Shown: positions 1 through 12,073 of the stretch, one piece after another
Numbering within the stretch: position 1 is the first letter of the stretch
How the letters are laid out: every line of letters begins with the position of its first letter
Virus record (IMG/VR): IMGVR_UViG_3300045988_125741
Span: 1-12,073 of that record
DNA from: a virus
DNA: 12,073 nt
Reading direction: 5' to 3' (one strand)
Notes under the pieces: generated by a model
Database searches by the model: none
What the model was told of the DNA's origin: nothing
The model's input: only the letters and a program-made list of their open reading frames with translations
Program-made: the position numbers and the translations under genes

Positions 1-286
1 GGTACAGTAAATATTTCCATGGAAATCGAGTAAATAAATCCCAATTCCTAGCCACTTCCTGCCAATTCCCAACACTTACAATAATATTCCAGCAATGCCA
101 ATCACTACCATTTCATTTCCATCCAACTACCAATTTATAACAATTACAATAACTTACACATATTCCAGTAGCTTACAATTTGATGTAATTTATTGTAATT
201 GACTGAATTTTACAATTACCACTCTTTCCCATATACAAAGAGTATACTGGCATATTATATAATTATATTTGTGCAAGTTGACTATT
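1..286. repeat. Left inverted terminal repeat (ITR)
   Basis: I compared 1..286 block by block with the reverse complement of 11788..12073 and found no mismatch. Identity ends at 287 (g versus a in the right-end copy). Confidence 0.97.
13..26. repeat. 14-bp perfect palindrome ATTTCCATGGAAAT near the genome end (mirrored at 12048..12061)
   Basis: Self-complementary by inspection. It is flanked by direct AGTAAATA repeats at 6..13 and 29..36. Confidence 0.9.
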
Positions 287-313
287 GACTTTTTGAAAAT
301 TTTCATTTATAAT
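285..313 (+). promoter_or_regulatory. SigmaA/sigma70-type promoter of the rightward (virion/lysis) operon
   Basis: TTGACT (285..290), a 17-nt spacer, then TATAAT (308..313). A second TTGACT lies 7 nt upstream (278..283) inside the ITR. The first gene starts at 347. Confidence 0.75.
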
Positions 314-346
314 GCAAGTAGAAAATAAAAGAAAGGTATGTAATTT

Positions 347-508
347 ATGGATGCTATTATGACAGCGGTTTCTACAGTAGGTTTTCCAATTGCAATTTCC
401 TGCTATTTGCTGTACACACAAACTAAATATATGCAGGCTATCAAATCCGCCCTGGAAAACAACACCAAAGCAATTACAGATTTGGCTGAAAAATTGGAAA
501 AGAGTTGA
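347..508 (+). CDS. Small single-pass membrane protein, YvrJ-like; holin candidate (53 aa, not in the ORF track)
   Basis: ATG at 347 lies 10 nt after GAAAGG (331..336), and the stop TGA is at 506..508. The translation is MDAIMTAVSTVGFPIAISCYLLYTQTKYMQAIKSALENNTKAITDLAEKLEKS. It has one hydrophobic helix with the GFPIA..YLL signature I associate with the YvrJ family, followed by an amphipathic tail. It is the first gene of the late operon. Confidence 0.6.
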   Translation: MDAIMTAVSTVGFPIAISCYLLYTQTKYMQAIKSALENNTKAITDLAEKLEKS

Positions 509-514
509 TAATTA

Positions 515-1492
515 ATGTTGTTCAGACCGTTTGACTACTGGCGTGGCGGTGTTTTTTCCTATAATGATTATGACCCCAAGGCAAAAGGCATTCGTGACAA
601 GCCCCGGAATTTTGAAACACACATGTCGGAATTTTTCAATACTACTGCCATTATGTTTCAATGGGATACTAGGGAATTAGAAATTCCAATTTTTAGGTTG
701 GAACAGTATTTACAGTGCTATGGTTGGGCTGCTGTAATTACCAAGAACGGCAAAAAGCTAGTTGTATCTGGAAATTGTGCCGGATGGCTGGGCGAATGGA
801 CAGAGTATTACATGCCAGCCGGAATTATAGTAACAAACCCATACGCACAAGAATTTAACGGACAGTATTATTTTTCAGATGATAATTGCATTCTTATTCG
901 CAATGATTCCGAATTTTTAGGGTTATATCCAATGTTTGCAAGGGCGTGTGAAATGTTGGTTGAAAATGATATTACAATTCTGAATGCATTGGAAAATTTG
1001 CGAATTATGAATATTTACTATGCAGAAGATTCCAATACAGCGAATGCATTTACTCAAATGCAAAAAAATCTGAAATGGGGCAAGTTGTCAACAGTTTTAC
1101 AGACTGTAAAATCATGGATGAACGGCGAGACAAAACCGTTAGGCGTTTTGCCTGTAAATGGAGTATGCACTACATATATGCAACAGTTAATTGAAATTGC
1201 AACATATATTAAGGGGCAGTTATACAATTCAATTGGGCTACAATCTAATTGGAATATGAAACGGCAATCATTATCAGAAAATGAAATCGGCGCTAATGAT
1301 GATATTTTAAAACCGTTAGTACAAAATATGTTATTGTGTAGACAGGATGCCGCAAAAAAATTGGGATGGACTGTAAAACTTAATGACATATGGGAACATA
1401 TAGAAGAAAAGGGTGTGGCTAATGAATCTGTTGAAACTGTATCCGACAATGACCGGGATATTTACGAAAATGCCGGGGATTCCATGGAGTGA
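515..1492 (+). CDS. Portal (connector / upper collar) protein, phi29 gp10-like
   Basis: 325 aa, compared with about 309 aa for gp10. Several blocks are collinear with remembered gp10 segments. [28 protein letters not shown] resembles [58 protein letters not shown] resembles [42 protein letters not shown] resembles KKERMVTDEVSSNDE. The C-terminal tail is acidic. Confidence 0.85.
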   Translation: [325 protein letters not shown]

Positions 1493-2051
1493 CAGCCTGA
1501 ATATTACAGCAGAACAGGCAGACAACTCCTTTTTTGTCCAGTGGGGTGCAATTTGTCCTTCATGGTATCTTTTGCAAAAAGTTTCCAGCAATGGTATTAT
1601 TGAAGATTCTGTAAAAACACAAATAGCAAATGCAATTTATTCAATGTATTCTAACGAGTGGAAAAAACTTTCAAAAGTTTTTTCGTTAAACTATGAAATT
1701 CTGAATAGTGCTAACGAAAAAACTATTACAGAAATTGCAGATAATGAGCAATTCAGACATGGACATTCAGTGAATACTACAAGTAGCGGAAATTCCAGTT
1801 TGTGGGGGTTTAACTCATCATCTGGAATTCCAAGCGATTCAGATAGTAATGAATCAAATACTACTAATTCCGGGGTTGATACCAACACCAGGGATAATGT
1901 TCGCATCACCACTAGAACAGGGCAAACGATTCCGGCTCAAGATTTAATTTCCAAAGAGTGGGAAGTCTGGAAGAAAAACTATTTTGCAATTGTTTACAAT
2001 GATATATTAAAGGTGATTGCATCGCCTATTTATGAAATGGAGGAAATTTGA
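1422..2051 (+). CDS. Virion-module protein of unknown function (candidate lower collar/head-tail adaptor or scaffold)
   Basis: The ORF is open from 1413 (GTG). I prefer the ATG at 1422, which lies 8-9 nt after AAAGGG (1408..1413). That start gives a 71-nt overlap with the portal ORF; 1449 and 1470 are alternative ATGs. The middle of the protein is Ser/Asn/Thr-rich (SSGNSS..SSSGIPSDSDSNESNTTNSG). The stop TGA at 2049..2051 lies just before the capsid start. Function is inferred from position only. Confidence 0.6.
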   Translation: MNLLKLYPTMTGIFTKMPGIPWSDSLNITAEQADNSFFVQWGAICPSWYLLQKVSSNGIIEDSVKTQIANAIYSMYSNEWKKLSKVFSLNYEILNSANEKTITEIADNEQFRHGHSVNTTSSGNSSLWGFNSSSGIPSDSDSNESNTTNSGVDTNTRDNVRITTRTGQTIPAQDLISKEWEVWKKNYFAIVYNDILKVIASPIYEMEEI

Positions 2052-2052
2052 A

Positions 2053-3357
2053 ATGAAAGTAAAACAGGTAGCCACACTTCTAAATACTGTATACAATGAA
2101 ATTATTGGCGAATCCGCTCTTGTAAAAGAGGATTTGTCAAATATTGTAGACGTTGGCAGAGAAATCACCAGTTCTACCCAGTGGGGTGATAATTTCGACA
2201 AGTTTGTGGGAAAGTTAATTGACCAGGTGGGCAGAGTAATTTTTGTTGACAGAACATATCAGCCGGACGATTTGGGGCTGCTCCGGGATTCCTGGACATA
2301 TGGCAGTATTTTGCAGAAAGTTCGCTGTGATGTAGGTGACTACGTTGACAATAAAGCATGGCAGTTGGCAGATACACAGAAACCGGATTTTTCCGATTTG
2401 TTTGATTTTGACAGTGCACCCACTGTAATGGCAAAATATTTCAATATGAAAACCACATTCAGAGAAAAGATTTGCATTACACGGGAACAGGCAGAATCTG
2501 CATTCCGTTCGGCAGAGGACATGAACCGATTTATTTCTATGATTGAAAACCGAATTCAGATGAAAATGAATTTGGCAACAGAAGCATTGGCGTACCGAAC
2601 CGAAGCAAATTTGATTGCTGAAAAGCTGTGGAGTGGTAACAATGTTGTAAATCTTTTGCATGATTACCACGTAGAAACAAGCGACAATTCAGTAACTGCC
2701 GATAATTGGAAAACAAAGCCCGATTTTCTACGATTTGTTTCCAATAAGCTGCAGATGTACAAAAAGCTGATTGCAAAAGCATCCATGCTGTTCAATGATG
2801 CCGGATATACCACATTCACGCCCCCGGAAAAATTGAGAATGTACGCACTTACAGATTTTGCTAGCGCAATGCGCACACATCTCTATGGCAACACATACCA
2901 TACCGAATTTGTGGAGGTTGACGGATATCATGAAGTGCCCTATTGGCAAGGAATGGGTACAAATGCAAAATATTCCGATAGGTCTATGCTGAACGTAATT
3001 CCGGCGTCGCAAGTAGGAAATGCCACAGCACAGATTGTACAGGATGGAATTATTTTTGTGATGCAGGACGATGAAGCGGCTCTTATTTGTTGTGAACAGA
3101 ATCCAGTTGACAGTCTTTACAACCCAGAGGGACGTTTTTACAAGTATTTCTATTCTGCTGATGCAAGTTATTACAATGACCTTGCAGAAAATGTAATTGT
3201 ATTTACGGTATCAGAATATTATTACGTTCCCTTGACTGTTCAGCCTGCTGATTGGACAACCGATTATGCGAATTACTATGTTCTTACAAATGGAGCATAT
3301 GTACAGAATTCCTCGGATACATTCGATGCAAACACCAGATATTACAAAAAGGCATAG
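2053..3357 (+). CDS. Major capsid protein (phi29 gp8-like size and position)
   Basis: The track ORF starts at 2017, but the ATG at 2053 (MKVKQV...) has GGAGG (2039..2043) 9 nt upstream and follows the previous stop. At 434 aa it is close to the 448 aa of gp8. It is followed immediately by a hairpin terminator/attenuator, as is common after capsid genes. Similarity to gp8 is only loose (FVGKLIDQVGRVIF versus FITSLVDRIGLVVI). Confidence 0.7.
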   Translation: MKVKQVATLLNTVYNEIIGESALVKEDLSNIVDVGREITSSTQWGDNFDKFVGKLIDQVGRVIFVDRTYQPDDLGLLRDSWTYGSILQKVRCDVGDYVDNKAWQLADTQKPDFSDLFDFDSAPTVMAKYFNMKTTFREKICITREQAESAFRSAEDMNRFISMIENRIQMKMNLATEALAYRTEANLIAEKLWSGNNVVNLLHDYHVETSDNSVTADNWKTKPDFLRFVSNKLQMYKKLIAKASMLFNDAGYTTFTPPEKLRMYALTDFASAMRTHLYGNTYHTEFVEVDGYHEVPYWQGMGTNAKYSDRSMLNVIPASQVGNATAQIVQDGIIFVMQDDEAALICCEQNPVDSLYNPEGRFYKYFYSADASYYNDLAENVIVFTVSEYYYVPLTVQPADWTTDYANYYVLTNGAYVQNSSDTFDANTRYYKKA

Positions 3358-3362
3358 TAGAA

Positions 3363-3390
3363 AATAGGCGGATAATCCGCCTATTTCCTT
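3363..3390 (+). terminator. Hairpin terminator/attenuator after the capsid gene
   Basis: AATAGGCGGA (3363..3372), loop TAA, TCCGCCTATT (3376..3385), then TTCCTT. The stem is 10 bp but the U-tract is only moderate, so it is probably leaky because downstream late genes must still be expressed. Confidence 0.5.
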
Positions 3391-3402
3391 ATGGAGGTAA
3401 AT

Positions 3403-3834
3403 ATGAACATTAAACTTTTATCATATTCACAACCTAAAAACAGTGTTAAGAAATCCTATACCACATGGGCAAATTTAACAGGTTCAATGCGTGATACACT
3501 AAATATTGTAAACCCTGTATTTTTAGTTCAAGCAACAGAGCAATATGACAAGGCTAACGCTGTTTATTGTGAAGAGTTGGATAGATACTATTTTATCACA
3601 GGGAAAGAGTGGGTAAGAACCGGACTTTTGGCAATTTCATGTCATGTTGATGTATTAGTGACATATCAGGGAGACATCTGGAACAATTCCGGCATTATAT
3701 CAAGAAATTCAAATCTATTTAATGGATATTTGCCCGACAATAAACAAAAGATTTTTCAATATGACAAGACACAAATTAAAGTATTTCCAAGGGAAATCCT
3801 AGTTGATACCAATATTTTGATTACTGTGGGGTGA
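3403..3834 (+). CDS. Tail protein resembling the N-terminal domain of the phi29 gp9 tail knob
   Basis: ATG at 3403 lies 5 nt after GGAGG (3393..3397); the track start at 3391 sits on the SD. The product is 143 aa. The pattern NAVYCEELDRYYFITGKEW..LLAISCHVDVLVTY matches the remembered gp9 N-terminal pattern ASYIMFQNADYGNKWFYAFVTEL..VHFEIDVLQTW. Confidence 0.6.
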   Translation: MNIKLLSYSQPKNSVKKSYTTWANLTGSMRDTLNIVNPVFLVQATEQYDKANAVYCEELDRYYFITGKEWVRTGLLAISCHVDVLVTYQGDIWNNSGIISRNSNLFNGYLPDNKQKIFQYDKTQIKVFPREILVDTNILITVG

Positions 3835-3838
3835 CTAT

Positions 3839-5440
3839 ATGAATATCATACGATTAGGAATTTTTGACGAAACAGGCGTAAAATTTGTAAAAAAGGTAGA
3901 TGCAGGTTTTTTTAATCCTAACGGTGCTCTTGCATCTGCTCTTTTATTGAAGCCGCTTGTAAATACCCAGATAGATGCTATAGAATATTCAACCGTTCTT
4001 GTAAATCATATAGGACATATGGAAAATATAAATGACACTTTTTCGGGCGGTAGTAATATTTCTGATTTATTTAATGATAATTCCAATAAAATTTTTGTTA
4101 TGAAAAATGAAAAGGAAAAGACAGAAAATTTTTTGCAAGTTATAACAACGGAGACACAATATTCAGGGATTACATATTTTATTGGTGATAATAGGATTAA
4201 TCAAGAAGCTACACTAACATTGCCTGTTGCTAATAGTATAATAAAAATGTGTTACTATTACAGAATTGTTAATAATGTTTTAAAAGAGTTTATTGGTTGG
4301 TTATATCTAGCACCTACTGGGCAAATAGACACATCAGGCCTGCCAACATATAGAATATCTGGGGTTCTTGTTGATTTAAATTTTTGGGAAAAAGGCAAAG
4401 TGCCCCCATTTGGAGACCCCACACCGGGGGGTGCAATTGGAGGATATGGTACATATGACGATACAAGCGACAATTTCCCAATTCCGCCCAATAGATTGAA
4501 TGATGTATATGGTAGCATTTTATCAAACCAAAACGGAAAAATACAAATGTATACGCTTGATTCTGGTGCGTATGGGGCTTTCCTTGGCAAAATTTACACA
4601 AATGATTTTTGGCAATATTGGAAAAATACAATGTTTAATCCTCTGGAGGGCATATACAGTTGCATCCGTGTTCCATTTAGTGAACTTGAACTAACACGGT
4701 CTGCCGTTGCTAAAATTAATGTATCAAATACAGAACTTGAAATTTTGGCAGGCGCGTACAAAGTTACAAATAATTACGTTAAAGACCAATTAATTACCTC
4801 CAATTATGTAATTGATGAATATTTTGGTAGTTTTCTTGATTATTCCCCGTACACTACATGCGAATTATATATCCCTTTTTATGGAACAGTAAACATAGAT
4901 ATAAACGAAATTATGGGTGGAAATATTTCCATCACTAGAAGAAATAACTATGTAAATGGGGATTTTGTGGTGTTCGTTCAATGTGTGAATAGATTTGGGA
5001 TTGCTGTCACGCATGCATATGCTGGAAATGCCGCTATCACATTACCAATTACAGCCGGAAATGACGGTTCCCCTAACAGAATACTTGACCTGGTTCAGGG
5101 TGTAGCCAATTTAGCAATGGGAAATTATGTTGGTGCTGGGACATCAGCGGTAAATGCTTTGACAGAAAAAGGAAATACTTCAACGGTTCAAAAATTATCA
5201 GGAGGATCCGGATGGAATGCAAGTCACGATTTTGCATTAATTTTCCGGCGTTCATGCCCCAGCAATCCAGAAAATTACACCAAGGAAAACGGCAGACAAG
5301 CAGACGAATTTGTAAATTTTTCAGATTTACAAGGATATACAGAAGTATCTGCTGTAGATTTGAAATTTACATCTGGTAAAATTACATCGGCAGAAATTGA
5401 CGAAATTAACAATTTATTGAAACAGGGGGTATTTTTCTAA
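3839..5440 (+). CDS. Tail protein; C-terminal half resembles the C-terminal part of the phi29 gp9 tail knob
   Basis: 533 aa. SPYTTCELYIPFYGTVNIDINEI resembles gp9 [23 protein letters not shown]. A Gly/Ala-rich segment (VQGVANLAMGNYVGAGTSAVNAL) resembles GMIGGGISAGASAAGGSALGM. The C-terminal GKITSAEIDEINNLLKQGVFF resembles GDINNNDLQEIRTIFDNGITLW. The N-terminal ~300 aa are not recognisable. The ATG at 3839 lies 4 nt after the stop of the preceding ORF. Confidence 0.6.
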   Translation: MNIIRLGIFDETGVKFVKKVDAGFFNPNGALASALLLKPLVNTQIDAIEYSTVLVNHIGHMENINDTFSGGSNISDLFNDNSNKIFVMKNEKEKTENFLQVITTETQYSGITYFIGDNRINQEATLTLPVANSIIKMCYYYRIVNNVLKEFIGWLYLAPTGQIDTSGLPTYRISGVLVDLNFWEKGKVPPFGDPTPGGAIGGYGTYDDTSDNFPIPPNRLNDVYGSILSNQNGKIQMYTLDSGAYGAFLGKIYTNDFWQYWKNTMFNPLEGIYSCIRVPFSELELTRSAVAKINVSNTELEILAGAYKVTNNYVKDQLITSNYVIDEYFGSFLDYSPYTTCELYIPFYGTVNIDINEIMGGNISITRRNNYVNGDFVVFVQCVNRFGIAVTHAYAGNAAITLPITAGNDGSPNRILDLVQGVANLAMGNYVGAGTSAVNALTEKGNTSTVQKLSGGSGWNASHDFALIFRRSCPSNPENYTKENGRQADEFVNFSDLQGYTEVSAVDLKFTSGKITSAEIDEINNLLKQGVFF

Positions 5441-6120
5441 TGTTTAAAGAGCGAACAAGTAAACCAGAAAAAGGAAACAAGTACTACACCACAAAAGACT
5501 GCGGGGGCTGGAGCCCGTGCATCAAGGGCAAACCTACTGATACCGATTGTAATGTACTGTCAAATTGTGTCGGGTATGCTGTAGGCAGATTCAATGAGAT
5601 ACATAACCGGAATTCATGCGACCTGTTGGGTAGTAGGAATGCAGGCCTATTGACAGAATTTTGTAAAACACAAGGGCTGATGCTAGATTCTTACATGCCC
5701 CATGTGGGTGCTGTAATGGTTTGGCAAAAAAAGAATGGTGCAGGTCATTGTGCCATAGTAGAAAAAGTTGTAAATGAACATACTGTAATTACCAGTGAAA
5801 GCGGGTACAATTCAAGAATACCATGGTGGCGGAAAGAACGGTGCCGTGGTTCTGGTAGATGGGGGTGTGGTTCTGCCTACACTTTCATAGGATTTATTTA
5901 CAAGGAGGAAATAAAAAATATGGTAAAAATGGGTTCAGTTGGTGCAGATGTCACGAAAATACAGGTGCGTTTAAGAGCATTGGGGTATTTTGATAGTCTG
6001 TGTGATGGTCACTTTGGCAAAAAGACCCTTGGTGCAGTTCTTTCTTTCCAGAAATTGAACGGGCTTGCAGTAGATGGTATTGTGGGGATTAAAACCCTTA
6101 CAGCATTAGGACTAAAATAA
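5440..6120 (+). CDS. Endolysin: CHAP/NlpC-P60-type cysteine peptidoglycan hydrolase + C-terminal PG_binding_1 domain
   Basis: The start overlaps the upstream stop (TAATG), and GGGGG lies about 9 nt upstream. The candidate catalytic Cys is in SNCVGYAVGRF and the candidate His in GAGHCAIVEKV. The C-terminus GADVTKIQVRLRALGYF..GHFGKKTLGAVLSFQKLNGLAVDGIVGIKTLTAL is a textbook PG_binding_1 repeat. Confidence 0.85.
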   Translation: MFKERTSKPEKGNKYYTTKDCGGWSPCIKGKPTDTDCNVLSNCVGYAVGRFNEIHNRNSCDLLGSRNAGLLTEFCKTQGLMLDSYMPHVGAVMVWQKKNGAGHCAIVEKVVNEHTVITSESGYNSRIPWWRKERCRGSGRWGCGSAYTFIGFIYKEEIKNMVKMGSVGADVTKIQVRLRALGYFDSLCDGHFGKKTLGAVLSFQKLNGLAVDGIVGIKTLTALGLK

Positions 6121-6124
6121 AAAT

Positions 6125-6154
6125 AGCCGGGATTTACTCCCGGCTGTTTTTTTT
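6125..6154. terminator. Bidirectional rho-independent terminator between the convergent operons
   Basis: AGCCGGGA (6125..6132), loop TTTAC, TCCCGGCT (6138..6145). It is followed by G+T8 on the + strand and preceded by AAAATAAAAAT, which reads as a U-rich tail on the - strand. Confidence 0.85.
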
Positions 6155-7316
6155 AATCATTTTTTACAGGCATCCCACACCACATTAAATAATTGCGCAA
6201 TGTTTCACCAGTCATATTGTCGGAATAGTATAAATTATCCTTTTTGAAAATTTCTACTATTTTTCTTTGTACTGGTAAAAATGGCTGATTGATTCTCTTA
6301 AACCAGTTGGGTTTGGCAATTGGTTTATCGCTGTATATCAGGTCGTTGTCAATATCTTTCAATGGCGATGTTTTCGGATTTATGTCAATAAATGTCATTC
6401 CGTCAATATATACCACATTGCATTGCAATACTTCTTCATCAAATACTATAAAAAACCGGAACTTTACATCACTGGAATAATAAGTATATGGACAAGTTGG
6501 ATATGTGGAGGTTTCAAAGTCGCCGGATGTAATCATTTTTGCATGCGGATTATCAAACTGAAAATATTCGTTTGATGCTTTTTCTTCAACAGGGCTGTCC
6601 GCCCACAAAGCGGAAATAAAAGGCTTTTCTTTGTTGTTTTTGTAAATTGTGATTTTTCCTTTTTCTTGCTTTGTGATGTGTTTCATTCCCATATTACGGA
6701 AATATGGGCAACTGGTAGATACTGTATTTCCAAGGAGGAAAATTTTTGCAAAATTATTCAATCGTACAAGCGTTGAAATAGCGTTCAAAAATAGTGCAAA
6801 TTCTCCTGGAACATATCCTATTCTGGAAATAAATTCATCAAATACAACAAGGCCTATATTTTCTGGATACACACCGCCTTTGTCGTGTTCCATATCCGTT
6901 AGTGCGAAACCATAACAGAACGGGTCATTTTCATGCTCTATTTCACCCTTTGAATTTTCGTACGCAAGATAAAACATTTTAGATTTATACAATACTCTGT
7001 CATATTGCCCACCTGTTAATTTAGATATAATTCCTCTGTTTGTCAATCCGCCGAAAAATTGGGACGCCGTTTTTACGGTGAAGTCTGTTTTCCATCTCCT
7101 AATGATTGACATTTTTTCACCGTATAATACATATCTTAACAGTCCCGTGGTAAACATGCCGTAACTTTTGCCGTTTGACCGTTCTCCCCACGCCAAATTA
7201 TACAACGTATCGCATTTCAATTGGGGGATGGGGTTATAAAAACCCTTATCCCCAATTAATTCCTGTAGCATTTTCAAAAATTCTTTTTCTTGGAAACGTT
7301 TTTCTTGTTTAATCAA
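6153..7316 (-). CDS. DNA packaging (encapsidation) ATPase, phi29 gp16-like
   Basis: The Walker A segment WGERSNGKSYGM resembles gp16 GARGIGKSYAM. It is followed by GEKMSIIRRWKTDF, which resembles GEQFIYVRRYKPEL. The Walker B segment LVVFDEFISR resembles TIVFDEFIRE, and FLLGNTVSTSCPYF resembles CLSNAVSVVNPYF. The start codon is TTG at 7316, 8 nt after a strong AGGAGG (rc of 7325..7330) embedded in the 3' end of the pol gene. The first in-frame ATG (7271) lacks an SD. Confidence 0.9.
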   Translation of the reverse strand: MIKQEKRFQEKEFLKMLQELIGDKGFYNPIPQLKCDTLYNLAWGERSNGKSYGMFTTGLLRYVLYGEKMSIIRRWKTDFTVKTASQFFGGLTNRGIISKLTGGQYDRVLYKSKMFYLAYENSKGEIEHENDPFCYGFALTDMEHDKGGVYPENIGLVVFDEFISRIGYVPGEFALFLNAISTLVRLNNFAKIFLLGNTVSTSCPYFRNMGMKHITKQEKGKITIYKNNKEKPFISALWADSPVEEKASNEYFQFDNPHAKMITSGDFETSTYPTCPYTYYSSDVKFRFFIVFDEEVLQCNVVYIDGMTFIDINPKTSPLKDIDNDLIYSDKPIAKPNWFKRINQPFLPVQRKIVEIFKKDNLYYSDNMTGETLRNYLMWCGMPVKND

Positions 7317-9498
7317 TTGTAATCCCTCCTATTTTATAAAGAAAATCTATGAAATTTTCTGCAAGGTTCATATTGTAGAATCCATTTTCTAGGTGAACGC
7401 TGGATAATTCACAATACTTTCCTGCATTACCTGTATAGTCGGTTACATATCCGGTTTGCGATTCATCCAAATATGTATGGGTCAATTTCCCACATTCACC
7501 AACAGGAAATATCAATTTATTAGTAAAATGTATAATTGCTTTCCTGCCGTATTTTTTTTTCAAATATTCAGCACCTGCTTTTTTCCCAACCCCGGCACAT
7601 GTCAAAATAATTTTATAACGTTTATCACCTATTGTCTTAAAATTATTAAACTGGTCAATTGCTTTCTTTACATATGCTTTTTTCAAATAATTTGTACTTT
7701 CTTTTTTTTCAACCCTCGCACATGCAAACTTAAAATTAACTTTATTTTCCGTAATGTATCGCTTTGCGCCTAATGTTTTGAACCTGTCATAAACGCCCTC
7801 AAAATCCCAAACGCCTATTAAATGTTTTTTTCCTTTTATGTCAATGGGTTCAAAGTCTTCAAAATCAAATTTATACCATTCACATACTTTTTTTATCAAA
7901 TCAATGCAACGTGCATTGTACTTTTCAATATAATCCATATGCTTTTCATAATTTGTAATTTTTATACTATCAGTATCGCTGTACTTGTAATCATTTCCAC
8001 AAGCTAAAATTCCAGTCCATAAATTTCTTCTGGCGTGCGCTGTAACGTAAACACCCCAGGGGTAATATAAAAATCTTCCATACTGATTATTATACGATTT
8101 GATTGCTTTTTCAATATCTGGAAATTCTGGCTCTTCCCAGTCATCGCTATACTTGTTTTCCTCTCTGATAATATTTGTAACCGCCATTCCGTATAGACTA
8201 TTCAACATACCTTTTGCTTTCAAATATTCTTCTTCTTTACCAATAATTCCTTTTAATTCCGTTTTTTTCTTATACAGTTCAAGTATAATTTCCATAAATT
8301 CTTTTGGTAGATACCCCCTATTGTATATGTAAAAATCTGAAAACTGAACACTGTCAAAAGTGTACGTCTTACAAATAATGTCAAAATCAATTTCAGTGAT
8401 GCAAACAGTAGCTTGTGGTGCGCTGTATATTCTACCATTATTCAGGATAGTATCATCTGTAATTTTTTCTTCTATTTTACTGAACGATAGATAATTATCA
8501 GACATACCTTGTCTCGCTCTTAAATTGTTAAATCTACATCTAAAAATACAACAATATTCTTTTAGATACTCTTTTGCTTGTTCTAGACTTTCAATTTTTA
8601 CCTTAACACCCTTTGACATTGGGAAATATTGTGTGAGCATTACGAACGGATAACTACTTGTGAAGTCAAAACTTGCCACGTTTTCATATATTTTGCCAAT
8701 TGCCCTAAAAGATGCATGTGTAAATCCGCCTATAAATGCTCTGCGGACGATAGCATATTCTTTCGGTTCAAGTGTAAGACTTCTTATTTTTTTCAAATAT
8801 TTCTTATTCTTTGTTAGAATTTCCTTGCAATGACGCCGCACAAACCCTGTTGCTGTCATAGGTATTTTCGTGATGCTACCCTCTTTTTCCATTAACTCCC
8901 ATATATAAGCCACTACGATACGCACATCATTCACCATGTACGGCAATTCAGATGTTTTTATTTCGGTTTCAGAATGTCTTATTTTGGAATAATCTAAATC
9001 ACCCACCAATTTTTGTATTTTGTGTTGTGTTAAATTTTCTGCTACTTTTTCCAAACTCAACCCAGACAAAATATAACTACATTTAAATTGAATGCCATCC
9101 GTAGTCAATGCTGTTAATGGGGTTCTTCTTTTGATGGCAAATACTTTTTTCCATTCAAACCACTTTCGCATAAACTGGAATTCAAATGATAAATTATGCA
9201 CATAGATTGTCAAAATACGCTTGCTTGAAATTTTGAATATTCTTTGCAATATTTGTAATACGTCAAAAAAATCTTTCCATGTTCTTCCTATTATTGTATT
9301 TTCCTTTATTTGCAACTGCCAAATATACATAATTGCAGTTTTTTCATTGTTCTTATTGTAAAAACTGGATGTCTCGATATCAAAACTACATGGCAATTCA
9401 ATATATTCTATGTGTTTTTTTTCGGTGCATTCATACTGTGGTATTGGCATTTTATGTAGTGTATGTATGGTATATACTACATCCGAAAATTTCAACAT
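7309..9498 (-). CDS. Family-B DNA polymerase, protein-primed type (phi29 gp2-like)
   Basis: Motifs present: ExoI FDIETSS, ExoII VHNLSFEFQF, ExoIII YMVNDVRIV, YxGG-like AFIGGFT, motif A DFTSSYPFV, motif B KGMLNSLYGM, motif C YSDTDSI and KxY KTLGAKRY (plus a second copy, KTIGDKRY). The track start at 9513 is TTG. The ATG at 9498 (MLKFSD...) lies 7 nt after GAGGTGG and is preferred, giving 729 aa. Confidence 0.95.
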   Translation of the reverse strand: MLKFSDVVYTIHTLHKMPIPQYECTEKKHIEYIELPCSFDIETSSFYNKNNEKTAIMYIWQLQIKENTIIGRTWKDFFDVLQILQRIFKISSKRILTIYVHNLSFEFQFMRKWFEWKKVFAIKRRTPLTALTTDGIQFKCSYILSGLSLEKVAENLTQHKIQKLVGDLDYSKIRHSETEIKTSELPYMVNDVRIVVAYIWELMEKEGSITKIPMTATGFVRRHCKEILTKNKKYLKKIRSLTLEPKEYAIVRRAFIGGFTHASFRAIGKIYENVASFDFTSSYPFVMLTQYFPMSKGVKVKIESLEQAKEYLKEYCCIFRCRFNNLRARQGMSDNYLSFSKIEEKITDDTILNNGRIYSAPQATVCITEIDFDIICKTYTFDSVQFSDFYIYNRGYLPKEFMEIILELYKKKTELKGIIGKEEEYLKAKGMLNSLYGMAVTNIIREENKYSDDWEEPEFPDIEKAIKSYNNQYGRFLYYPWGVYVTAHARRNLWTGILACGNDYKYSDTDSIKITNYEKHMDYIEKYNARCIDLIKKVCEWYKFDFEDFEPIDIKGKKHLIGVWDFEGVYDRFKTLGAKRYITENKVNFKFACARVEKKESTNYLKKAYVKKAIDQFNNFKTIGDKRYKIILTCAGVGKKAGAEYLKKKYGRKAIIHFTNKLIFPVGECGKLTHTYLDESQTGYVTDYTGNAGKYCELSSVHLENGFYNMNLAENFIDFLYKIGGITID
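7519..7782 (-). repeat. Tandem in-frame duplication inside the polymerase gene (KxY motif plus start of thumb)
   Basis: Copy 1 (7642..7782) is FKTLGAKRYITENKVNFKFACARVEKKESTNYLKKAYVKKAIDQFNN. Copy 2 (7519..7641) is FKTIGDKRYKIILTCAGVGKKAGAEYLKKKYGRKAIIHFTN. Similarity is also visible at DNA level (AATTGCTTTC, TTTTTTCAAATA and GCACATG occur in both). Confidence 0.8.
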
Positions 9499-9509
9499 AA
9501 AATACCACC

Positions 9510-10058
9510 TCAATCAAACCACTCAAAAGGATTTGAAAAACTTTCTGCCATTTTTCTTTCTTCTTCCTCTGCTTCAAAACGTTTTTTTACAAAAGCCATT
9601 TCAACCATATTATATAATTCTTCTACTGTTTTAACCCGATGTAATGACATTGTTCGTTGAACAATTTTCACCGCTTCTTTGTAGGGCAAAACATCGTAGT
9701 ATTCTGATTTATAATAAATATCATATAGTACTTTTTTCAATAATGCGTCGTCAATTGCATTGAATTGCTTTCTGCCTTTGTAACCACCTAAAATTTGCTT
9801 TTCCTTTTGTTTCTGGTTTTTCTTTAGTGCTTGTTGTAATTTCTTCTCTTCCCTGTCTTTTTTTCGTAACTCTGATGCATATTTGTCTTTCTTTACTTGT
9901 TTTGCTAATTGCCGTATTTGCTGTTGCGCTTTCCTCTTTTCTTTTGCCTGTTGTTTCCTTATTTGTCGTTTCTTTTCTTTTACTGATAGTTTATCGGCAG
10001 TAGCACCCCTCTTGGGGGGTGCTTTCCTGGTGCTGTTTTTCTTTTTTGGTTTAGCCAT
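9510..10058 (-). CDS. Putative terminal protein (priming protein); extremely basic N-terminal half
   Basis: 182 aa, immediately upstream of pol as in phi29 (gene 3 then gene 2). Its stop TGA (9512..9510) lies inside the pol SD. The start ATG at 10058 overlaps the upstream stop (ATGGCTAA). The N-terminal ~97 aa are K/R/Q/E-rich (MAKPKKKNSTRKAPPKRG...KEKRKAQQQIRQLAKQVKKDK...). The C-terminal half is Tyr-rich (LYDIYYKSEYYDVLPYK) with an acidic tail. I recognise no sequence signature; the call rests on synteny and composition. Confidence 0.5.
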   Translation of the reverse strand: MAKPKKKNSTRKAPPKRGATADKLSVKEKKRQIRKQQAKEKRKAQQQIRQLAKQVKKDKYASELRKKDREEKKLQQALKKNQKQKEKQILGGYKGRKQFNAIDDALLKKVLYDIYYKSEYYDVLPYKEAVKIVQRTMSLHRVKTVEELYNMVEMAFVKKRFEAEEEERKMAESFSNPFEWFD

Positions 10059-10293
10059 CGTCTTTCTTCCTCATAAATTCCATATACGTGAAATTCAGTC
10101 CCTCAATAATTCGGACTACCTTATATCCGAAAAACTTGCAAAGTTTTACAAAATCGTTTTGTGTTGGGTAAAGTCCTAAATCCTGGTATTTTCTGATGCA
10201 TAAATAATTAGCCGCTTGGACGGAATCAGTTGTCAAAAACACTTGGAAACGTTTGCCATCACTGTGCCCAACTGCTATATATTGCTTGCTCAT
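10051..10293 (-). CDS. Hypothetical early protein (80 aa)
   Basis: The track start at 10314 is TTG and lies inside a hairpin. The ATG at 10293 (MSKQYIAVGH...) follows AAGGAGG with a 4-nt spacer. It occupies the position of phi29 gene 4, but I see no similarity. Confidence 0.65.
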   Translation of the reverse strand: MSKQYIAVGHSDGKRFQVFLTTDSVQAANYLCIRKYQDLGLYPTQNDFVKLCKFFGYKVVRIIEGLNFTYMEFMRKKDDG

Positions 10294-10305
10294 AAAACCT
10301 CCTTT

Positions 10306-10322
10306 CCGGGGCAAAGCCCCGG
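10306..10322 (-). promoter_or_regulatory. GC-rich stem-loop between the SSB-like gene and the next gene
   Basis: CCGGGGC-AAA-GCCCCGG on the + strand, a 7-bp stem. On the mRNA it sits 7 nt after the upstream stop and directly abuts the AAAGGAGG SD of the next gene. There is no U-tract. Confidence 0.6.
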
Positions 10323-10329
10323 AATAATT

Positions 10330-10746
10330 TTACTTTTCAATTACTGCCTGCAACGTCAAGAATGATACATCCGCTGATTTGTTCACCTGTTTAATACGGA
10401 ATTTTCTGGGATGTTCCCATGTATCCGGCATGCCGAACGCCTGAACAATATTACGCAATGCATTGAACACCCCGACAGATGTGCATGCATACCCGTTGCC
10501 CTTGCTGTCAATTAATGTAACATGCGGTGCGTTCGTCACCTCGCCTGTTTCTTTGTTTGTTACCTCAACCATAGAAATAGCAAAATGTGCTAGTTCAATT
10601 TCCTGGTTTATACAGTCCTTAATTCTGAATTCTGGTGCGGTGGTTGCGTTGTACACAATTGCTTTGTTTTCCTCTGTTACAACAGGCATTGTGCAGAAAC
10701 TTCCTACTTCTTCCATGTTCTTGATTGTCAATGCAAATTTTTCCAT
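10330..10746 (-). CDS. Single-stranded DNA-binding protein candidate (phi29 p5-like)
   Basis: 138 aa, with ATG at 10746. The C-terminal two thirds line up with remembered phi29 p5. VTLIDSKGNGYACTSVGVFNALRNIVQAF resembles TTIFAADGSLYSAISKTVAEAASDLIDLV, and FRIKQVNKSADVSFLTLQAV resembles FKVKVVQGTSSKGNVFFSLQL. Its position upstream of TP/pol is consistent. Confidence 0.55.
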   Translation of the reverse strand: MEKFALTIKNMEEVGSFCTMPVVTEENKAIVYNATTAPEFRIKDCINQEIELAHFAISMVEVTNKETGEVTNAPHVTLIDSKGNGYACTSVGVFNALRNIVQAFGMPDTWEHPRKFRIKQVNKSADVSFLTLQAVIEK

Positions 10747-10865
10747 ATTTTTCTTTCTGCCCCTGTCACCCTGGGGCGCAAGGTATTTGCGAAAATGTGG
10801 GTGTATGTATATTGATGTTTATTTTAATTTGTGGGGTTGCGACCACAATTCCGCATTACCCCGGC
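10747..10865 (-). other. 119-nt structured intergenic region inside the early operon (hairpins; possible terminator, internal promoter or leader RNA)
   Basis: Stems on the + strand: GCCCC/GGGGC (10759..10763 with 10773..10777), CGCAA/TTGCG (10777..10781 with 10787..10791), TTGTGG/CCACAA (10829..10834 with 10843..10848) and CCCGGC/GCCGGG (10860..10865 with 10870..10875). The last stem encloses the upstream stop codon in its loop. A weak - strand promoter candidate, TTGTGG-16-TAAAAT, is present. Confidence 0.5.
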
Positions 10866-11117
10866 TTATGCCGGGTCGCTCTGCGCATTAAAATAACCGT
10901 CTGGCATCTGCCTAATTTCTCCGTTTTCGACTATGTAGTCACCTACATGAACCAAATACATGATATTCATAGTCTCATACACACATTCATGCAACACAAA
11001 CCCTCCGGGATGTTTTTCCAGTTTCCACCACTTACACCAATGGCGAAATGGATATTGACACGGTTTTTCATATTCTGCTAAAATCTTTTTAGCGAAAACG
11101 GTAGAAATGTTTTTCAT
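10866..11117 (-). CDS. Hypothetical early protein (83 aa), Cys/His/Trp-rich
   Basis: The track start at 11126 is TTG. The ATG at 11117 lies 9 nt after GAAAGGGG. The sequence CQYPFRHWCKWWKLEKHPGGFVLHEC could be a metal-binding site. It overlaps the upstream gene by 29 nt. Confidence 0.6.
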   Translation of the reverse strand: MKNISTVFAKKILAEYEKPCQYPFRHWCKWWKLEKHPGGFVLHECVYETMNIMYLVHVGDYIVENGEIRQMPDGYFNAQSDPA

Positions 11118-11406
11118 TAGGTTCAACCCCTTTCAAATAATAATCCATGCCGCCTGTATGTGTAACAATATACCCATCACCGTATTTGCCTGAATACGGA
11201 TATACCCCAAATGGCATGCCTGGAAATTTGCGCTTGTACCGGGCTGCCCTGTGGTGGAATCCACATTTTTCCATTGCCATAAATGAACACAGTACGTCGT
11301 TGAAATCGACATCATCGGGGTTCTTTGTCTCACCAACTATCATTGCCGCCTGGAATAAAACATCGTGAATGTCGTGCACATTTACAAAACTTAACTCTTT
11401 GAACAT
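11089..11406 (-). CDS. Hypothetical early protein (105 aa)
   Basis: The track ORF extends to 11463 and overlaps the previous gene. The ATG at 11406 (MFKELSF...) follows AAGGA, which overlaps the upstream stop (TGAAAGGA), with an 8-nt spacer. I recognise no family. Confidence 0.6.
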   Translation of the reverse strand: MFKELSFVNVHDIHDVLFQAAMIVGETKNPDDVDFNDVLCSFMAMEKCGFHHRAARYKRKFPGMPFGVYPYSGKYGDGYIVTHTGGMDYYLKGVEPNEKHFYRFR

Positions 11407-11419
11407 AAACAACATCCTT

Positions 11420-11662
11420 TCAATTAAATGCAATTTTTCTAGTTGCATTCGGCAATTTGTCATGACATCTACTTGTACTTACTGCCATTAACTCGCTCTT
11501 ATCCCAATGTTTGCCATATGTCACGAATTTACCTGAACTGGTGTAAATTCTAACATGTTTACCGCCTGTTACTTTTAGCCATTTCCGTGCGTTCCGGTGA
11601 CCAACACCCCGAATAATGTTAAATACGTTTACACCATCGTCGTAAATTACCACATATTTCAT
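11420..11662 (-). CDS. Hypothetical first early protein (80 aa), basic
   Basis: ATG at 11662 lies 5 nt after AAGGAGG. It is the first ORF downstream of the right-end promoter. I recognise no family. Confidence 0.7.
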   Translation of the reverse strand: MKYVVIYDDGVNVFNIIRGVGHRNARKWLKVTGGKHVRIYTSSGKFVTYGKHWDKSELMAVSTSRCHDKLPNATRKIAFN

Positions 11663-11709
11663 ATTTTCCTCCTTGCCTTTCGGCTGTTCTTTTCTTATCT
11701 TCTGTTTAT

Positions 11710-11738
11710 ATTATAACACGAAAATTCTCGATTGTCAA
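11710..11738 (-). promoter_or_regulatory. SigmaA/sigma70-type promoter of the leftward (early/replication) operon
   Basis: On the - strand: TTGACA (rc of 11733..11738), a 17-nt spacer ending in TGT, then TATAAT (rc of 11710..11715). This is a consensus -35/-10 with a TG-extended -10. Upstream is an A/T-tract region (AAAAAATTTTGAGAAAATTTCAAAAAGG) that resembles an UP element. Confidence 0.8.
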
Positions 11739-11787
11739 TACCTTTTTGAAATTTTCTCAAAATTTTTTGATTTTACTAAAATTCATT

Positions 11788-12073
11788 AATAGTCAACTTG
11801 CACAAATATAATTATATAATATGCCAGTATACTCTTTGTATATGGGAAAGAGTGGTAATTGTAAAATTCAGTCAATTACAATAAATTACATCAAATTGTA
11901 AGCTACTGGAATATGTGTAAGTTATTGTAATTGTTATAAATTGGTAGTTGGATGGAAATGAAATGGTAGTGATTGGCATTGCTGGAATATTATTGTAAGT
12001 GTTGGGAATTGGCAGGAAGTGGCTAGGAATTGGGATTTATTTACTCGATTTCCATGGAAATATTTACTGTACC
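11788..12073. repeat. Right inverted terminal repeat (ITR)
   Basis: Exact reverse complement of 1..286. Each position p in the left copy maps to 12074-p. Confidence 0.97.

Follow-up and report, generated by a model that had tools for sequence, protein, structure and literature searches.

A tandem duplication across the KxY hairpin of a phi29-type phage DNA polymerase, probably a neutrally decaying relic in a rare allele

The 12,073-nucleotide (nt) viral DNA of IMG/VR record IMGVR_UViG_3300045988_125741 (positions 1 to 12,073, hereafter the window) encodes a 729-residue protein-primed family B DNA polymerase in which the segment leading from the KxY motif into the thumb occurs twice. We consider it likely that this duplication is a tolerated relic, decaying neutrally in a rare allele. 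In the proposed history, 47 codons (141 nt) of the polymerase gene, with the KxY β-strand, the turn of the hairpin, the TCAG strand and the first helix of the thumb, would have been duplicated in tandem in one lineage of ~12-kb human-gut podophages of the phi29/Astrithr-like kind. A later 18-nt deletion would have taken the equivalent of ITEKND out of the second copy, leaving a net gain of 123 nt, in frame. The KxY strand of the first copy would pair with the TCAG strand and helix of the second, as the same elements do in single-copy relatives, and the two inner halves (residues 585–628) would loop out from the former 2-residue β-turn. Freed from protein-level selection save for reading frame and stop-codon avoidance, this inner unit would decay at about the neutral rate. 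The allele would persist at low frequency in a strongly recombining population, its flanks having been swapped with those of single-copy strains.

The repeat within the polymerase gene

The polymerase gene and the two copies lie as follows, in window coordinates:

7309–9498, minus strand: protein-primed family B DNA polymerase gene; 729 amino acids (aa) from the ATG at 9498, the open reading frame (ORF) reaching a TTG at 9513
7642–7782, minus strand: copy 1 (residues 573–619, FKTLGAKRYITENKVNFKFACARVEKKESTNYLKKAYVKKAIDQFNN)
7519–7641, minus strand: copy 2 (residues 620–660, FKTIGDKRYKIILTCAGVGKKAGAEYLKKKYGRKAIIHFTN)

A first-pass annotation of the window had described two adjoining, related in-frame segments at this place, and the coordinates, frame and peptides were exactly as it gave them. 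Local alignment of copy 1 with copy 2 (BLOSUM62) gave a score of 90, compared with a mean of 23.0 (standard deviation 4.7) and a maximum of 51 in 2000 shuffles, none of which reached 90; the self-alignment that the annotation had proposed as a check is thus significant. After one 6-residue gap, the copies share 22 of 41 aligned residues. In a 32-residue core, 15 residues (47%) are identical, the match at about half of the positions that had been noted, and residual identity in the DNA amounts to 70.7% for 123 nt and 72% for the core. Tandem Repeats Finder, applied to the window, did not report the copy 1/copy 2 repeat, because copies that are only ~70% identical are too diverged for it. Judged from the alignment, the repeat is a true in-frame tandem duplication that takes in the KxY strand and the thumb entry of the polymerase.

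The corresponding hairpin region of phi29, aligned from the phi29 GenBank record, is present once, with 26 residues between KTY and KCAGM, and copy 2 retains the phi29-like TCAG context; both points agree with the annotation. Its further proposal, that the duplication accounts for part of the extra length of this enzyme relative to that of phi29, holds for 41 of the 154 extra residues, the remaining excess being family-wide.

Distribution of conserved elements between the copies

We denote the KxY part of the unit as A and the part containing the TCAG strand and helix as B, followed by the number of the copy:

7747–7782, minus strand: A1, the N-terminal part of copy 1, retained KxY strand (residues 573–584, FKTLGAKRYITE)
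7615–7746, minus strand: inner unit of degenerate halves (residues 585–628: NKV, then B1, then A2)
7642–7737, minus strand: B1 (residues 588–619, NFKFACARVEKKESTNYLKKAYVKKAIDQFNN)
7615–7641, minus strand: A2 (residues 620–628, FKTIGDKRY)
7519–7614, minus strand: B2, the C-terminal part of copy 2, retained strand and first thumb helix (residues 629–660, KIILTCAGVGKKAGAEYLKKKYGRKAIIHFTN)

A1 and A2 are spaced by 47 codons and B1 and B2 by 41. Copy 1, at 47 residues, is of native length, and copy 2 is without the six residues equivalent to ITEKND. From the two offsets we therefore infer a 141-nt unit and a 6-codon deletion, the duplication having presumably come before the deletion.

Conservation differs sharply along the repeat. 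Relative to the single-copy relatives L001–L003, amino acid identity is 100% for A1 (573–581), 75–94% for B2 (94% to P0003/L002), 78% for A2 and 47–53% for B1; A1 is 100% identical to every close single-copy relative. Residues that are invariant across the family are kept only in A1 (G577, K579, R580 and Y581) and in B2 (T633 and G636). In the inner copy, the T of TCAG has changed to A in the window or to V in two other carriers of the duplication (L004 and L006, see below), and the G has changed to R or N. The second KRY (626–628) is degenerate, and in L006 the lysine of the second KxY has become T and its glycine V. The inner unit is absent from all 120 homologues listed and constitutes a net insertion relative to the single-copy relatives.

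By this pattern of conservation, the working elements are shared out between the copies, copy 1 providing the KxY strand and copy 2 the TCAG strand and helix, and the B1 and A2 halves are one redundant 44-residue insert. The first-pass annotation had spoken of a diverging duplication. The duplication is real, but it has not left two functional units that diverge, since the conserved elements are divided between them.

Single-copy relatives and other carriers

The 16 closest protein clusters (P0001–P0016; 142 member sequences) are 688 aa long, contain one unit (FKTLGAKRYITEKNDKITLTCAGVGKKAGANYLQKTYGEKAIEHFTN) and are 87–93% identical to the window polymerase outside the insert. For four of them (P0008, P0012, P0013 and P0015) the gene call begins at a later start and gives 672 aa; P0016, at 486 aa, is a fragment. 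Compared with the DNA of L001–L003, that of the window has an excess of exactly 123 nt. Two K[TS]xGxKxY motifs were found in none of the 120 homologues listed. In a neighbour-joining tree, the window groups with L004 (100% bootstrap), and their sister is single-copy P0008 (96%), the clade being nested among single-copy sequences. Because the relatives are single-copy and the carriers are nested among them, the duplicated state is, on this tree, derived and restricted to one allele. The duplication had been described as fixed; all 16 closest clusters being single-copy, it is instead a rare allele in the clade, carried by only three sequence variants.

The other carriers, three further contigs, came from a degenerate pattern across the copy 1/copy 2 junction and from a protein search with the double unit. 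The 88-aa double-unit protein search scored only 3 candidates and says little about the rarity of the allele; L006 came from it. L004 (IMG/VR uncultivated virus genome 3300045988_112988) has 94% DNA identity to the window, and its polymerase is also 729 aa long and 97% identical. L005 (ENA ORPK01002729, human gut, 12.9x coverage) and L004 are 99.99% identical, with 1 nt difference over 11,798 nt; either one strain was recovered on two occasions or a single dataset was deposited in both collections. L006 (ENA, another sample, 2.7x coverage) is 84% identical over 1166 nt (polymerase nt 1025–2190), without gaps and with the same arrangement; its positions 1–1166 cover polymerase codons 343–729. 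In L006, polymerase codon 525 (GAA in the window) is an in-frame TAA, and TCAG in the otherwise invariant strand has become TWAG. The carriers are thus three distinct sequence variants in four contigs from different collections.

Substitution patterns in the insert

The comparison of the window with L006 was broken down by codon position and set against simulated neutral evolution of the same segments:

Inner unit, 585–628: 20/132 nt differences; codon positions 1/2/3, 5/7/8; 31/44 residues identical; neutral simulation 30.0 ± 1.8; P = 0.36
Flank, 535–584: 22/150 nt differences; codon positions 1/2/3, 2/1/19; 48/50 residues identical; neutral simulation 34.7 ± 1.8; P <0.0005
Flank, 629–678: 20/150 nt differences; codon positions 1/2/3, 3/2/15; 47/50 residues identical; neutral simulation 36.3 ± 1.8; P <0.0005

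In this comparison, no protein-level constraint was detected over the 44 codons of the insert, while the flanks are strongly constrained. The ratio (omega) of non-synonymous to synonymous substitutions per site (dN/dS) relative to L006 was 0.10 for B2 and ~0.5 for the inner unit. The divergence between the copies has the same character: B1 against B2 gave a dN of 0.345 and a dS of 0.383 (dN/dS ~0.9), compared with a dN of ~0.04 and a dS of 0.58–1.25 for the whole gene relative to its relatives. When the inner halves were compared with the parental halves, there were 36 nt differences, and the 22 of 41 identical residues lie close to the neutral expectation of 19.2 ± 2.1 (P = 0.13). That the frame is kept and that the insert is free of stops follow from the need to translate the thumb downstream.

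The window and L004 were also considered as a pair for the constraint test. They have 2 differences in the 132-nt insert, compared with 17–40 expected from the dS of the flanks. This comparison was dropped as uninformative because codons 629–683 (B2 and thumb) are likewise without synonymous differences; the whole tract is young.

Predicted structure of the hairpin

An AlphaFold2 (AF2) model of the polymerase alone, a check that the first-pass annotation had called for, had an overall predicted local distance difference test score (pLDDT) of 90.8. Its only low-confidence segment is 587–626 (pLDDT <50), within which a residual helix is predicted at 604–620. On either side, the model places a strand at 580–585 (A1) and a strand at 629–634 followed by a helix at 639–653 (B2). 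The single-copy control, P0004, gave a pLDDT of 93.7 and no low segment, with a strand at 580–585, a tight turn at 586–587, a strand at 588–593 and a helix at 598–612. The remaining secondary structure of the two models is essentially identical, element for element. In the model, then, the insert is located at the turn of the KxY β-hairpin, and A1 would pair with B2 in the manner of the two strands of P0004. The annotation had proposed that the duplication may create a new subdomain for handling terminal protein or DNA; this is not borne out by a segment that is without detectable protein-level constraint between carriers and is the sole low-confidence part of the model.

The length of the turn varies in the wider family, from ~3 residues in the close clade to the 26 residues that lie between KTY and KCAGM in phi29. 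At the same hairpin tip, P0024, P0027 and P0030 have 8–12 extra, mostly basic residues (e.g. KNKKGKRKK, GDERNKSKDRGR). The tip of the KxY hairpin is an insertion and deletion hot spot, which seems to favour basic loops.

Recombination around the insert

Conserved codons of the inner unit show 2 synonymous differences in 31 between the window and L006, compared with 112 in 280 elsewhere, and, if the insert is neutral, its 15% divergence is much below the synonymous divergence of its flanks. The flanks of L006 are 0.90–0.94 identical to single-copy L002/L003 and 0.83–0.86 identical to the window. The genealogy of the insert is younger than that of the flanks because the flanks have been exchanged with the population, whereas the insert, which has no partner in single-copy genomes, can descend only from the one original event. 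Along the window polymerase gene, identity to L001–L004, L006 and L008 ranges from 0.75 to 0.99 over successive 150-nt windows, and the nearest relative shifts along the gene. Such a mosaic suggests that co-circulating strains often recombine homologously.

Nucleotide-level selection, or an antisense gene, was considered as a cause of the low synonymous divergence and rejected, as the mosaic flanks account for the pattern. An antisense ORF (7456–7773, plus strand, 105 aa) does overlap the duplication, but both L004 and L006 have stops within it; it is most likely spurious.

Weighing the alternatives

Several points count against a purely neutral relic. With 3 carrier variants and 44 codons, the neutrality tests are weak against slight constraint (omega estimates of 0.4–0.9). 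Some of the L006 differences may reflect errors of sequencing or a genome that is defective, given the low coverage (2.7x), the in-frame stop and the change of TCAG to TWAG. Where AF2 places A1 and B2 is in part determined by the multiple sequence alignment (MSA), so that AF2 is not independent evidence for copy usage or for disorder; homologues align to A1 and B2 and none to the insert, and a low pLDDT is therefore expected there, whether the insert is folded or not. The conservation and substitution data are independent of AF2. The inner unit also retains its length, the predicted helix at 604–620 and a strong positive charge (11 K and 2 R to 4 acidic residues in 44), and the other basic insertions at the hairpin tip could hint at a benefit that depends on charge or length. 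Lastly, the allele is ~15% diverged between carriers and is present in different backgrounds, and from this long survival it follows that it is not strongly deleterious.

These points bear mainly on the possibility that the insert is a nascent functional insertion, comparable to TPR1 and TPR2 of phi29 polymerase: a flexible, lysine-rich arm between palm and thumb that would contact the terminal protein or the product DNA and be selected for its length or charge, not its exact sequence. It is a weaker version of the subdomain that the annotation proposed. Such a function would fit the frame and length kept in all three variants, the strongly basic composition, the independent Lys/Arg-rich insertions of P0024, P0027 and P0030, the helix still predicted and the persistence of the allele in recombinant backgrounds. 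We nevertheless regard it as unlikely. The differences between carriers fall equally over the codon positions and amino acid identity equals the neutral expectation, family-invariant residues have been lost, pLDDT is <50, and the allele is rare (3 variants compared with 142 single-copy member sequences); the maintenance of frame and the lack of stops are already explained by translation of the thumb. The narrower proposal of a length- or charge-dependent role, in which the relic is now being co-opted as a flexible, strongly basic arm that helps to hold product DNA or the terminal protein, seems to us quite unlikely. If it were true, the insert would be a visible first step toward TPR-like insertions in protein-primed polymerases, selected for length and charge and not for sequence.

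As to origin, the extra segment might have been taken from a distant protein-primed polymerase by illegitimate recombination and not have arisen by duplication in situ. The inner unit has only 53% amino acid identity to its neighbour, compared with 87–93% between carrier polymerases and single-copy relatives, and B1 is nearer to the P0004 allele (NYL, KKAI, FNN) than to the B2 of the window itself. However, when B1 was scored against the 120 homologues, the best matches were all in the close clade (69–88), with no other lineage above 61, and it follows that the duplicated DNA arose within the clade. The dS between B1 and B2 (0.38) is also smaller than that of the gene as a whole (0.58–1.25), so that neutral decay since an in-clade duplication suffices. 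Unequal crossing-over between co-infecting strains of the clade is possible, yet it would still be a tandem duplication. A foreign donor is thus very improbable.

Copy 1 might instead be the whole working unit, with KxY, the full hairpin and an ACAR strand and helix, and copy 2 an extra module before the rest of the thumb. Copy 1 does have the native 47-residue length and copy 2 is short of 6 hairpin residues, but the invariant T and G are gone from B1, which evolves neutrally, while B2 is 94% identical to L002 with an omega of 0.10; AF2, albeit with the MSA bias noted above, takes B2 as the strand and helix. We give this arrangement almost no weight.

That the repeat is an assembly artefact or chimera, in which reads of two strains were joined with an offset and no real genome has two copies, is scarcely credible: an exact look-up of the 729-aa product in a gene-position index did return no record, but the same 729-aa architecture and junctions occur in the 94%-identical IMG/VR and ENA contigs and in a third, 84%-identical ENA contig from another sample, the inner unit is too unlike every single-copy strain to have been stitched in from one (B1 has 47–53% amino acid identity to the three relatives compared, and its best scores of 69–88 against the 120 homologues are far below the 123–154 of B2), and the length of the insert is an exact multiple of three. 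These diverged assemblies also answer the concern about an assembly duplication that the first-pass annotation had raised.

Comparison with known systems

The 729-aa product is a phi29-type protein-primed family B polymerase. It matched PF03175 (DNA_pol_B_2) with 62.7 bits (cut-off 25.8, E = 4e-17) and phi29 polymerase (1xhx) in phmmer with E = 2.3e-10; a phmmer search of the PDB with the C-terminal 175 residues gave no match. Motifs were sought for ExoI (DxE), ExoII (Nx2-3F/YD-like) and ExoIII (YxxxD), for polymerase motifs A (DxxSLYP), B (Kx3NSxYG) and C (DTD), and for KxY. The exonuclease motifs found are FDIET (D40, E42), HNLSFEF (N102) and YMVNDV (Y187, D191), invariant across 78 aligned sequences; DFTSSYP (D278), KGMLNSLYG (K429, N433, G437), YSDTDS (D508, D510) and KRY (K579, Y581) are likewise invariant columns. 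The nine best Foldseek matches of the AF2 model in the PDB are all phi29 polymerase chains (E = 1.6e-29 to 5e-27), with target-normalised template modelling (TM) scores of 0.73–0.76 (0.74–0.76 for the best, 2ex3/2pzs/1xhx), whereas other family B polymerases reach a TM score of only ~0.3.

Phi29 polymerase (gp2; PDB 1XHX, 2EX3, 2PZS and 2PYJ) resembles that of the window in fold, Pfam family, motifs and the order KxY strand, β-hairpin, (K/T)CAG strand and thumb, and the lineage of the window has a phi29-like genome context, with a terminal-protein candidate, a single-stranded DNA-binding protein (SSB), a gp16-type ATPase and terminal inverted repeats. The two enzymes differ in sequence (~19% identity), in length (572–575 aa compared with 729) and in that phi29 has a single KxY/CAG unit where the window has a duplicated one with a 44-residue relic at the tip. 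The single-copy polymerases of the clade (P0001–P0016; L001–L003 and L008) agree with the window in gene order and, element by element, in predicted secondary structure, and differ from it in having one FKTLGAKRYITEKNDKITLTCAGV...HFTN unit and a tight 2-residue turn where the window has its 41-residue excess.

The nearest relatives in culture are the Astrithrvirus-like phages (Salmonella phage astrithr/Astrid, Pectobacterium phage DU_PP_III, as well as Acinetobacter phage Phanie), which have been treated as phi29-related (PMC11476376). Their polymerases are 40–42% identical to that of the window over 95–98% of its length, and in tblastn each aligned in one piece over 95–98% of the query. Their genomes, at ~11–12 kb, are similar in size to the window. 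They infect Gram-negative hosts, whereas the window belongs to a human-gut lineage with a CHAP plus PG_binding_1 lysin.

TPR1 and TPR2 of phi29 polymerase are conserved, folded and required for terminal-protein binding, processivity and strand displacement. Like them, the insert is a lineage-specific insertion into the palm/fingers scaffold of a family B polymerase; unlike them, only one allele has it, its sequence is unconstrained and its predicted structure has low confidence. The subdomain proposed in the annotation would amount to a third insertion of the TPR kind. A second parallel is the intermediate of permutation by duplication, or complementary degeneration, in which an A-B-A'-B' arrangement keeps one A and one B intact and the others decay. 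Here the outer A and B would be the ones kept, so that the original order is preserved, the inner B-A becomes a loop and no circular permutation results.

A literature search found no earlier description of a duplication of the KxY/TCAG region in protein-primed polymerases. The duplication is heritable, and it is unusual because a catalytic motif lies within it. Read as a neutral relic, the repeat would be a natural, almost textbook-like case of an internal duplication across a catalytic motif of an essential enzyme that is resolved by complementary retention, with the redundant halves turned into a neutral loop at a permissive turn. It indicates that the hairpin tip after KxY tolerates at least 41 extra residues, which may be useful in engineering phi29-type polymerases (fusions, tags). 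As a private insert, it also serves as a genealogical marker that exposes intense recombination among co-circulating gut phage strains. The duplication shows neither a new enzymatic activity nor a new kind of system.

Genome context

The window, of ~12 kb, is probably a complete linear genome, with perfect inverted terminal repeats of 286 nt (100% complementary) at 1–286 and 11788–12073. The terminal repeat of phi29 is 6 nt, so that of the window is far longer. A megablast search of the whole window against GenBank phages gave no match. The related contigs derive from human-gut metagenomes, and those of close relatives have the gene content of a phi29-like podophage, encoding a phi29-type SSB, a terminal-protein candidate, the polymerase, a gp16-type packaging ATPase, a CHAP/PG_binding_1 lysin and a phi29-type major capsid protein.

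Immediately upstream of the polymerase gene is an ORF of 182 aa (9510–10058, minus strand), a terminal-protein candidate; the relatives have ORFs of 182–196 aa at this place, with no Pfam hit. At its other end, the polymerase gene overlaps the downstream ORF of the gp16-type packaging ATPase (6153–7316, minus strand) by 8 nt (7309–7316), as it does in the relatives, which suggests translational coupling. The terminal repeats themselves hold short tandem repeats of 10–11 nt, at 41–69 and 12005–12033.

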